DNA of 64,000 nucleotides from a virus. Its lineage: Duplodnaviria; Caudoviricetes. This document shows positions 11,855 through 13,515 of the stretch, piece by piece; position 1 is the first letter of the stretch; each line of letters starts with the position of its first letter. Under the pieces are notes generated by a model. It saw only the letters and a program-made list of their open reading frames with translations. It ran no database searches and was not told the origin of the DNA. Location of the stretch: IMG/VR virus record IMGVR_UViG_3300044546_000600, positions 10,590-74,589 of that record. One strand, given 5' to 3'. The position numbers and the translations under genes are program-made.

Positions 11855-12156
11855 CCAGAGTCAGGTTGCCGAAAAGAATGAAGCGTGATCATGCAGTCAC
11901 AAATATAATCTTGCGAGACAAGCCACCCAAGAATGCGTAGTTTTTCTAGCCCAAATCCAACGTTCTTAACTTCCATTTCAAATCTTCTTGGAGTTTCAAT
12001 TGGAAGACCTTCTTCATTAAGAGTGATAAGAAGCATTAACTTTGAATCGTTGAGATCATTCGTGGAAATGATTGAGGCTTTGTAAGGAGTAAGCTCCTGA
12101 ATGTTAAGATGCTTGCGTGACTTTTCAGTCAGAGCAAATGTGATTTCGTACTTCAT
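11842..12156 (-). CDS. hypothetical protein
   Basis: 104-aa ORF with ATGA overlap. Confidence 0.65.
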   Translation of the reverse strand: MKYEITFALTEKSRKHLNIQELTPYKASIISTNDLNDSKLMLLITLNEEGLPIETPRRFEMEVKNVGFGLEKLRILGWLVSQDYICDCMITLHSFRQPDSGWKS

Positions 12157-13142
12157 TTTAAGAAATTTTTAATTTTTTGGATAGCGTCAGATTTTTCGGC
12201 GAAAGCTTGAGCAACGAATTGCTTTTGATGCTTTAGCTCTTCCTCGTAATTGAGAGAAGAAACATAACTTGTCAAGCCTTTTGACAATCTTTTTTCATCA
12301 ATTAAAGCATTCGGGGATAAAGTGTATCCACAATTCTTAATTGTATTTTCGCATCCAGCGTCAAACAACATTACAACATCACTCATCAAAGCTTCGTAAA
12401 AACGATTAGCTAAGAACGCATAGTTGTTGTGCGTATGCAAATCTTCAATGTAGATTGAGTATTTATATTTGCGCAAATCTTCTTCGTTTTTCTTCCACGA
12501 AAGTTTATCGACGAAAGTACAATTACAGTTGATTGCTTGAAACTTCTTAACGTTCTTTGGCGAGCAAGAAAGATGCACGCCTTCCGTCAAGAACTTCTCG
12601 AAAGAGATTTGGCGATGCTTACGATATGTACCGTAATAAACGATTCCTTCTTTGTCTTGAGGATTTGTAGGATTGCGCGTATCCATAATCAAAGAATTGA
12701 GATTAACGGTTAGCCATTCAACGATAAAGTCGTTCAGCTTTTTCCCCGCAATGTTCTTGTTGAGAATCCAGTGGCGATAACCGCTACGAGGATTATTGCA
12801 GATCATGTCATACTTTAATCCATGATTGATTACGCCATAGCGAAGAAGCTGATTGTCTTCAATGTCATGGTCGTTAACAAGCCAAACGTACCTCGCGTTT
12901 GGATTCTTCGTCAGAATCTCGCGGTAAGGAACGTGCGGCATATACGGCGAAGCGTACGCGCAAATGATTATGTCGTACTGGTTGGCTAAGATTTGTGGTA
13001 GTTTGTATTCGCCATCCAATAAGTCTGCGCCGAGTGCCTCGGCCAGAATCAAGCTGTTACGGCAATGAACGATTGAGGTATCGTCAAACTCATTTGACAG
13101 CGGCTTTCTCTTGCTTGTGCTTTCGATGATTAAGATTTTCAT
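12153..13142 (-). CDS. GT-B glycosyltransferase resembling T4 DNA beta-glucosyltransferase
   Basis: MKILII start; IVYYGTYRKHRQ (T4 BGT VIYGGSFRSGQR) and IEDLHTHNNYAFLANRFYEALMSDVVMLFD (T4 BGT IGDKNYNDNFITLRVWETMASDAVMLID); T4 sequence recalled from memory. Confidence 0.65.
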   Translation of the reverse strand: MKILIIESTSKRKPLSNEFDDTSIVHCRNSLILAEALGADLLDGEYKLPQILANQYDIIICAYASPYMPHVPYREILTKNPNARYVWLVNDHDIEDNQLLRYGVINHGLKYDMICNNPRSGYRHWILNKNIAGKKLNDFIVEWLTVNLNSLIMDTRNPTNPQDKEGIVYYGTYRKHRQISFEKFLTEGVHLSCSPKNVKKFQAINCNCTFVDKLSWKKNEEDLRKYKYSIYIEDLHTHNNYAFLANRFYEALMSDVVMLFDAGCENTIKNCGYTLSPNALIDEKRLSKGLTSYVSSLNYEEELKHQKQFVAQAFAEKSDAIQKIKNFLK

Positions 13143-13515
13143 TAAATTTTGTGAATTCGCCTTCTTCGTTTGAGTAGTAAATTTCTTTGAAAATTACATC
13201 GCCCAAAAGCTTTTGGCAGTGCTTGCAAGGTTTACCCATAGCTACTTTTTCGTTTCTGTCAATACGAAATGTAACTAAAATATTTTTTGAGTGATCTACC
13301 TTGCCAGATTTAATGACGGCGCACGCTTCGGCATGAATGCCGCTTCCTTCAAAATAACCGTACTTTCTATTGATTGGATGAGACTTCTTTGAGTTTCTCC
13401 CAATAGAAACGACACGATTCTTGTGCAGTATAAAAGCAAAATGACGACACCGGATTCCAGTGTCGTCATAGATAATTAGATTTTTTGCTAGGTTTACGAG
13501 ACGGTCAAACTTCAT
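13090..13515 (-). CDS. cytidine/dCMP deaminase-fold zinc protein
   Basis: HAE...KPCxxC signature (IHAEACAV, MGKPCKHC). Confidence 0.8.
   Translation of the reverse strand: MKFDRLVNLAKNLIIYDDTGIRCRHFAFILHKNRVVSIGRNSKKSHPINRKYGYFEGSGIHAEACAVIKSGKVDHSKNILVTFRIDRNEKVAMGKPCKHCQKLLGDVIFKEIYYSNEEGEFTKFNENLNHRKHKQEKAAVK

Follow-up and report, generated by a model that had tools for sequence, protein, structure and literature searches.

To our knowledge, the glycosylation of phage DNA described so far always starts from a hydroxylated pyrimidine, the product either of a ThyA homologue or of a methyltransferase acting together with a TET enzyme. The β-glucosyltransferase of phage T4 (BGT; PF09198, which we take to be CAZy family GT63; structures 1J39 and 1C3J) and the T4 α-glucosyltransferase (AGT; 1Y6F) both act on hydroxymethylcytosine (hmC) in DNA. 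Here we describe a gene for a BGT-like glycosyltransferase (GT) in a 64,000-nucleotide stretch of a tailed-phage genome (positions 10,590 to 74,589 of the IMG/VR record IMGVR_UViG_3300044546_000600; hereafter the window). Its product is a true but very remote homologue of T4 BGT that lies outside PF09198, and we tentatively propose that it glycosylates DNA autonomously, on a new kind of acceptor.

For BGT the literature assigns the role of general base to D100, which follows strand beta-4, and names R191, R195, R269 and E272 as ligands of uridine diphosphate (UDP). The window GT shares with BGT the GT-B fold over its whole length, the aligned carboxylate and UDP ligands, a similar length and a distribution confined to phages. 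It differs in sequence (15-18% identity), in an N-lobe rebuilt with invariant motifs of its own, in the near-neutral isoelectric point (pI) of its subfamily and in being carried by phages without a dCMP hydroxymethylase. AGT, the second structural match, differs from the window GT as a retaining and larger enzyme (about 400 residues), and at 14% identity the likeness is one of structure.

Metagenomic phage enzymes of families GT53, GT66 and GT94, compared here with the window GT by description only, likewise have a GT-B fold resembling BGT and an Asp at the position of D100 (bioRxiv 10.1101/2023.12.21.572611). They act on 5hmC and their genes are clustered with those for a C5-methyltransferase and a TET-like dioxygenase, whereas neither partner was found in the records carrying the window GT or its relatives, the TET search there having no positive control. 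The same study reports many orphan GT contigs with no neighbouring base-modification gene. The arabinosyltransferases of phages RB69 and DLP3 are also phage DNA glycosyltransferases, acting post-replication on a hydroxylated cytosine, 5-hydroxycytosine (5hoC) (PMC13326640). These enzymes resemble bacterial ones of GT4 type, RB69 and DLP3 being without BGT or AGT homologues, and they depend on a ThyA homologue with the exchange D169N (PMC13326640), whereas the nine complete genomes searched that carry a relative of the window GT have no ThyA homologue.

A remote homologue of T4 BGT

A preliminary description of this DNA, made from the letters alone, had outlined two overlapping reading frames, and both are as described:

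12153..13142, minus strand: BGT-like GT-B glycosyltransferase, 329 residues (AF2 model, Foldseek, VIA-align, hhalign)
13090..13515, minus strand: zinc deaminase of the cytidine deaminase (CDA) fold, 141 residues (PF00383, phrog_18355/174, AF2/Foldseek)
13090..13142, minus strand: overlap of the 3' end of the deaminase gene with the 5' end of the GT gene, 53 nucleotides in different frames (direct sequence reading)

The start codon call of the GT is sound, because its homologues share the N-terminus MKxLIIES. An AlphaFold2 (AF2) model built with a 49-sequence alignment had a mean predicted local distance difference test score (pLDDT) of 93.4 and a predicted template-modelling (TM) score (pTM) of 0.91. 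When this model was compared with the PDB using Foldseek, six T4 BGT entries came out on top (TM 0.69-0.73, E 5e-9 to 6e-8), led by 1j39 (TM 0.73, E 4.8e-9), and generic GT-B enzymes followed at a TM of about 0.5 (≤0.57). The best match was therefore BGT itself; a non-DNA GT-B enzyme in this place is what the preliminary description had named as speaking against its proposal. VIA-align, an all-against-all structural search, also placed T4 BGT first (Z 21.3 over 299 residues, root-mean-square deviation 3.2, 18% identity) and T4 AGT second (Z 19.1, 303 residues), every other GT-B enzyme scoring 16.1 or less. With BGT first in both searches, the model has the GT-B fold of the T4 BGT family, which comprises two Rossmann-like lobes and a C-terminal helix crossing back.

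Alignment of the subfamily with T4 BGT by hhalign covered the C-lobe alone (E 5e-5), pairing VYYGTYRKHR with IYGGSFRSGQR of BGT (S189/R191/R195) and NRFYE with LRVWE (R269/E272). These are the two motif blocks from which the likeness had initially been noticed. A 113-sequence profile of the wider family gave a full-length alignment with BGT (probability 95.2%, E 2.5e-8), which bears out the first impression of a T4 BGT-like gene as one of genuine, distant homology. The N-lobe, already noted as very different, is much more diverged from BGT and could be aligned only by global or deep-profile methods. In the global alignment the invariant D91, which lies within the invariant motif NDHDxEDN (49-sequence alignment A1), falls on the catalytic D100 of BGT; in the wider family the same position is occupied by the Glu of a motif NEY (113-sequence profile). 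R174/R177 of YYGTYRKHR and R247/E250 of NRFYE are invariant and align with R191/R195 and R269/E272, respectively. Judging by these alignments, D91 is the putative catalytic carboxylate, and R174/R177 together with R247/E250 are predicted to bind the nucleoside diphosphate (NDP). About 25 polar or aromatic residues of the N-lobe pocket remain invariant down to 40% identity.

Family models do not recognize the protein. The GT had no match in Pfam (E≤0.1), PHROGs or NCBIfam, and neither it nor any of the 113 wider-family members matched PF09198, a model that detects T4 b-gt at E 1e-99. Its look-alikes in the ESM-Atlas are all viral and include clusters in which 97-100% of members belong to PF09198. 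A sequence search of the PDB returned a lipase at E 0.08, which we rejected as spurious. The GT is thus a new form of BGT-like enzyme that escapes recognition by Pfam.

The upstream deaminase

The deaminase consists of a conserved core of 124 residues and a C-terminal extension of 17 residues that is peculiar to the window copy and accounts for the length of the overlap. In relatives the protein has 124-125 residues and terminates at the GT start, the junction being either a 3-nucleotide overlap or a gap of 260-283 nucleotides. The 53-nucleotide overlap in the window suggests co-transcription or translational coupling.

The HAE and PCxxC motifs by which the protein had been recognized (residues 61-63 and 96-100, the latter PCKHC) are invariant in 16 deaminase sequences, so that the zinc site is in place. 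The protein matched PF00383 at E 1.5e-5 (25.2 bits, cut-off 25 bits) and phrog_18355/174 (dCMP deaminase). Its AF2 model (pLDDT 83) found the dCMP deaminases of S. mutans, PBCV-1, the cyanophage S-TIM5 and T4 (2hvw, 7fh4, 4p9c and 1vq2) as best Foldseek matches (E 1.3e-4 to 3e-4, TM 0.44-0.55), in a tie with blasticidin-S and cytidine deaminases, and its profile reached the Dcd of S-TIM5 at E 0.028 only. The CDA fold, the HAE/PCxxC motifs and a size of 125-140 residues are common to the window protein and the small viral dCMP deaminases of S-TIM5 (4P9C), PBCV-1 (bi-DCD, 7FH4) and T4 (Cd, 1VQ2). The usual deaminase motif HAExNA carries an Asn, which the HAEACAV of the window protein lacks. It is a diverged CDA-fold enzyme nearest to dCMP deaminases, and dCMP is its putative substrate. 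Most simply, it would convert dCMP to dUMP for the ThyX encoded in the window. This route from dCMP through dUMP to dTMP, for a genome of 38% G+C, is economical because the window holds an equivalog-grade ThyX, a dUTPase-like gene and a ribonucleotide reductase (RNR).

At every locus where the GT is at least 67% identical to that of the window, the deaminase gene lies directly upstream on the same strand. Among more distant GT members it was never upstream; there the GT gene adjoins DUF1376, HNH, Nuc_deoxyrib_tr, ThyX, RusA or NinB genes instead, and the deaminase is therefore not a general partner of the GT. Conversely, when loci were sought from the deaminase side, the GT was present in 77 of the 77 that had enough sequence downstream. 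Because no deaminase in this set falls below 76% identity, the pairing is synteny within one phage group and not independent evidence of coupling.

Distribution and genomic neighbourhood

A HMMER scan of 1.84 billion representatives returned 656 clusters (formed at 50% identity) at E≤1e-3, of which 463 also passed E≤1e-10. The family is virus-restricted: among 185,579 prokaryote species genomes the subfamily occurred on three lake contigs of metagenome-assembled genomes and in no cultured host. The sole cultured carriers found were S13 and LPCS28, two T4-like phages of Cronobacter, and the Citrobacter phage Ci1; their gp057, annotated as hypothetical, is a clear GT homologue (99.8% HH probability). 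The window phage was present in near-identical form in 18 lake-water metagenome runs, as contigs only, in which a modification signal is unreadable. Two RNA-library runs gave short contigs over 12232-12490 and 13438-13890, which are no proof of transcription.

About 160 GT loci from IMG/VR and other assemblies were collapsed to 36 lineages. The Pfam tally of genes within two positions of the GT counted DUF1376 (8), HNH (5), dCMP deaminase (5), AAA_25 (3), Nuc_deoxyrib_tr (3), ThyX (2) and RusA (2); NinB, single-stranded DNA-binding protein (SSB), DnaB, ligase, PolA and YqaJ were further neighbours. The GT gene is thus surrounded by replication, recombination and nucleotide modules, which are the usual place of phage DNA-modifying enzymes. 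Of the 55 Pfam families in these positions, the 25 commonest included none for glycan synthesis, and no universal partner gene was present within four positions of the GT. A two-gene cassette common to S13 and the freshwater phages, consisting of a 244-residue protein and the GT, was considered and rejected, as the 244-residue proteins have no similarity.

In five distant lineages (L083, L084/L085, L088, L092 and L141) the GT is preceded, at a distance of one or two genes, by a gene for an HNH endonuclease, and T4 b-gt is similarly flanked by the homing endonuclease gene segA. This arrangement may reflect mobility of the GT gene. A scan for promoters and terminators in the window gave no more sites than expected from shuffled sequence; one TTGACA-16-GATTAT site lies at 14440-14413 on the minus strand.

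Source of a hydroxylated base

In T4 the substrate of BGT depends on a dCMP hydroxymethylase. The preliminary description had listed ThyX and dUTPase genes and had seen neither a hydroxymethylase nor a TET gene in the window. The two nucleotide genes are:

48734..49423, minus strand: ThyX flavin-dependent thymidylate synthase (PF02511 E 4.6e-31; TIGR02170 98.6 bits, cut-off 87.9)
55494..56030, plus strand: dUTPase-like protein (PF00692 E 8.6e-15; TIGR00576 81 bits, under cut-off)

ThyX is of equivalog grade and aligns to ThyX of T. maritima, and the second protein is dUTPase-like by PF00692. ThyX is likely a consumer of the deaminase product dUMP and no hydroxymethylase. We rejected it as a hidden hydroxymethylase, given that it passes the TIGR02170 equivalog model and that ThyX occurs in only one of the nine complete carrier genomes. 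In lineages L087 and L089 the ThyX gene adjoins the GT gene.

When the window was searched by tblastn and phmmer with T4 gp42 and S13 td, no ThyA-like gene appeared below E 0.8, and there was none in four IMG/VR records of 67-76 kb whose GT is 70-95% identical to that of the window. Whole-record searches covered 24-26 IMG/VR records, nine of them with a completeness of 90% or more; these nine measure 33-154 kb, and several bear terminal repeats. The ThyA family was absent from all nine complete genomes and occurred in one of 24 records overall; as a positive control, the search found T4 td, and gp42 at E 3.9e-17. No C5-methyltransferase (PF00145) was detected in 26 carrier records, with controls positive in 9 of 14 genomes. 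Tet_JBP (PF12851) was absent from 24 carrier records, but the control genomes also gave nothing, so this result is weak evidence. The absence of a hydroxymethylase or TET gene hence holds for the window, as regards ThyA, and for the complete carrier genomes, with the TET search lacking a positive control. Two ways of making a pyrimidine that can be glycosylated are established, one through a ThyA homologue (PMC13326640) and the other through a C5-methyltransferase with the dioxygenase 5mYOX (bioRxiv 10.1101/2023.12.21.572611). The ThyA-type and C5-methyltransferase routes are absent from the complete carriers.

Three complete carrier genomes of 33-35 kb hold recombination, replication and P22-like structural genes, and among their 25 commonest Pfam families there was none of nucleotide metabolism. 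In S13 (NC_028773; L001/L164) the sole ThyA gene is td, which has frd and nrdA as its neighbours. As in an ordinary td, its product retains D169, N177 and L143, the residues that discriminate thymidylate synthases from 5hodCMP or hydroxymethyl synthases (PMC13326640). S13 has no PF09198 gene and no homologue of gp42, BGT or AGT, and the literature on this phage makes no mention of its DNA chemistry. The phage retains denA (endonuclease II), and protection of its own DNA from this enzyme could involve the GT homologue gp057.

Acceptor of the glycosyltransferase

That the GT glycosylates DNA autonomously and on a new acceptor has, in our estimate, a probability of roughly 45%. Three points favour a DNA acceptor: the structures to which the GT is specifically related are both DNA glucosyltransferases of T4, its catalytic architecture is conserved, and in phages of unrelated types its gene lies within replication and nucleotide modules. 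The GT would be an inverting GT-B enzyme of common ancestry with T4 BGT, whose C-lobe would bind an NDP-sugar through R174/R177 and R247/E250, with D91 as the presumed general base activating a nucleophile held in the conserved N-lobe pocket. The acceptor would most likely be the phage's own DNA, modified post-replication as camouflage against host nucleases, and the enzyme would work alone with a sugar nucleotide supplied by the host. The accepting group would probably not be a hydroxylated pyrimidine made by the phage, because complete carriers have neither of the ways known to lead to hmC, 5hoC or hydroxymethyluracil (hmU) through a ThyA-type enzyme or a C5-methyltransferase. The deaminase, in turn, would supply dUMP to ThyX, being co-transcribed with the GT in the window lineage and dispensable to it. 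A DNA acceptor, an anti-restriction role and the substrate of the deaminase are what we infer. The narrower proposal of a one-gene system, in which the BGT-derived enzyme puts a host NDP-sugar directly on DNA at a canonical or other non-hydroxymethyl position, we consider rather doubtful.

Several observations weigh against a DNA acceptor of this kind. The window subfamily has a median pI of 7.3 and a median N-lobe pI of 6.65, with 10% of N-lobes above pI 8, unlike T4 BGT (pI 9.0) and the wider family (median 8.9). Its near-neutral charge would fit a DNA-binding surface poorly, and the NDHDxEDN cluster at the active site is acidic. We know of no glycosyltransferase that modifies an unmodified DNA base. 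The uncontrolled Tet_JBP search and the restriction of the small-genome survey to the 25 commonest Pfam families leave room for an unrecognised hydroxylase. Many other sugar enzymes, including a GDP-mannose dehydratase, a TylF methyltransferase and GT1-, GT2- and GT9-like proteins, are encoded in the window or in some relatives, and in such sugar-enzyme-rich phages a glycan-related role is conceivable.

A BGT-derived enzyme could instead have come to act on a non-DNA acceptor, such as a mononucleotide or signalling nucleotide, tRNA or another RNA, or a protein of the host or the phage, in the service of host takeover or anti-defence. We judge this somewhat unlikely, though a rival to be taken seriously because the subfamily lacks a basic pI. 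It would suit the pI and the acidic active site just mentioned, as well as the failure to find ThyA or C5-methyltransferase sources of a hydroxylated base in the carriers. It would also suit the neighbours of the GT in several lineages, namely deaminase, Nuc_deoxyrib_tr, MazG-like PRA-PH, NAMPT/PRPP synthetase and Acb2/Tad1. The extreme conservation of the N-lobe pocket is typical of a small, fixed ligand, yet a flipped-out nucleotide would explain it too. The nearest structures, moreover, are specifically the two DNA glucosyltransferases, the wider family is as basic as BGT, and in the small phages the gene sits in a replication/recombination module with no nucleotide metabolism among the families listed.

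Quite improbable in our view is a classical glycosyltransferase for hydroxymethyl- or hydroxypyrimidine DNA, the base coming from an unrecognised enzyme such as a novel hydroxylase or a 2-oxoglutarate oxygenase, for which the DUF6445 protein encoded at 61289-61882 of the window is an example. Every BGT-like phage enzyme that has been characterised uses 5hmC (bioRxiv 10.1101/2023.12.21.572611), a 5hoC route with other glycosyltransferases exists (PMC13326640), and many carrier genes are unannotated, a gap to which the uncontrolled Tet_JBP search adds. The controlled searches speak against it, as the ThyA family was missing from all nine complete genomes and the C5-methyltransferase needed for the TET route from all 26 records; full base replacement is, in addition, unlikely in the three genomes of 33-35 kb. 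A further reading takes up the coupling suggested in the preliminary description: deaminase and GT would form one pathway, the former making the base or nucleotide that the latter glycosylates. The two genes do overlap or abut on the same strand at every locus of the window lineage, the 77 pairings are without exception, the deaminase belongs to a diverged subfamily known from that lineage alone, and its gene lies 14-42 kb away from those of ThyX, RNR and dUTPase. A pairing limited to one group of related phages is, however, a single evolutionary event, and in GT members of 58% identity or less the vicinity of the gene holds no deaminase of this type. A deaminated base would carry a lactam carbonyl where the GT needs a hydroxyl. 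The structures closest to the deaminase are, moreover, dCMP deaminases of the ordinary sort, and the window encodes an ordinary ThyX. We regard the single pathway as very improbable. Of the preliminary interpretation, then, the BGT homology and the absence of precursor enzymes stood, while the coupling to the deaminase gave way to the ordinary dCMP to dUMP explanation.

Other genes of the window

The window phage (G+C content 38%) has lambda-like tail genes, a class I RNR, DnaB, a primase, UvsX, ThyX, the dUTPase-like protein and an SSB. Its further features are:

7155-8330, minus strand: FecR-domain protein
8332-9048, minus strand: secreted Thr/Gly/Asn-rich repeat protein, beside CsgG/CsgF
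9045-9839, minus strand: CsgG, curli-type secretion (PF03783 E 2.8e-49)
9842-10297, minus strand: CsgF, curli-type secretion (PF10614 E 4e-16)
31174-32376, minus strand: GT9-like gene, in a second glycan cluster (31174-36048)
32363-34279, minus strand: 638-residue GT1 with DUF4214
35062-36048, minus strand: choline/aminoglycoside-kinase-like protein
35987-38425, minus strand: Lon-like ATP-dependent protease, 812 residues, beside the DNA polymerase genes (phrog_4871 E 6.5e-208)
38435-42356, minus strand: DNA polymerase (PolB), apparently split into a 246-residue part, a 214-residue exonuclease-like part and an 851-residue polymerase part
46231-46653: HNH endonuclease reading frame in the replication module
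50292-51332: GDP-mannose 4,6-dehydratase, within the sugar-gene set 50292-55338
51329-51865 and 53179-53838: two methyltransferases, one of TylF type
56027-56614, plus strand: 195-residue protein encoded between SSB and the dUTPase-like gene, weakly matching the sigma-70 family (E 1e-4 to 1e-2)
57035-58129: GT1-like gene, within the sugar-gene set 57035-63241
60274-61245: GH130-like gene
61289-61882: DUF6445 gene
61895-63241: fusion of GT2 and a methyltransferase

The type VIII secretion set (7155-10297) is unusual for a phage genome. The sugar-modification genes (50292-55338 and 57035-63241), among which there is also a GT25-like gene, could serve virion or host-glycan modification. The kinase-like protein at 35062-36048 resembles the sugar-1-kinase module for UDP-arabinose synthesis in RB69 (PMC13326640). 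The 195-residue protein is, from its matches, a possible phage sigma factor.

Significance

The relatives of the window GT form a large, virus-only family related to BGT, which occurs in complete genomes down to 33 kb without the ThyA-type or methyltransferase half of the known pathways. Since a GT homologue is present in three phages in culture, S13, LPCS28 and Ci1, the question of the acceptor is testable. If the acceptor is not DNA, the BGT scaffold would have been recruited to another target in host takeover. If the GT modifies DNA, it would represent a new DNA-modification chemistry, with a bearing on the evasion of restriction and CRISPR, on the sequencing of viromes and on enzyme tools. 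Were one-gene glycosylation true, it would be a portable function with a role like that of orphan methyltransferases, widespread in freshwater phages and found also in T4-like phages of Cronobacter and Citrobacter.

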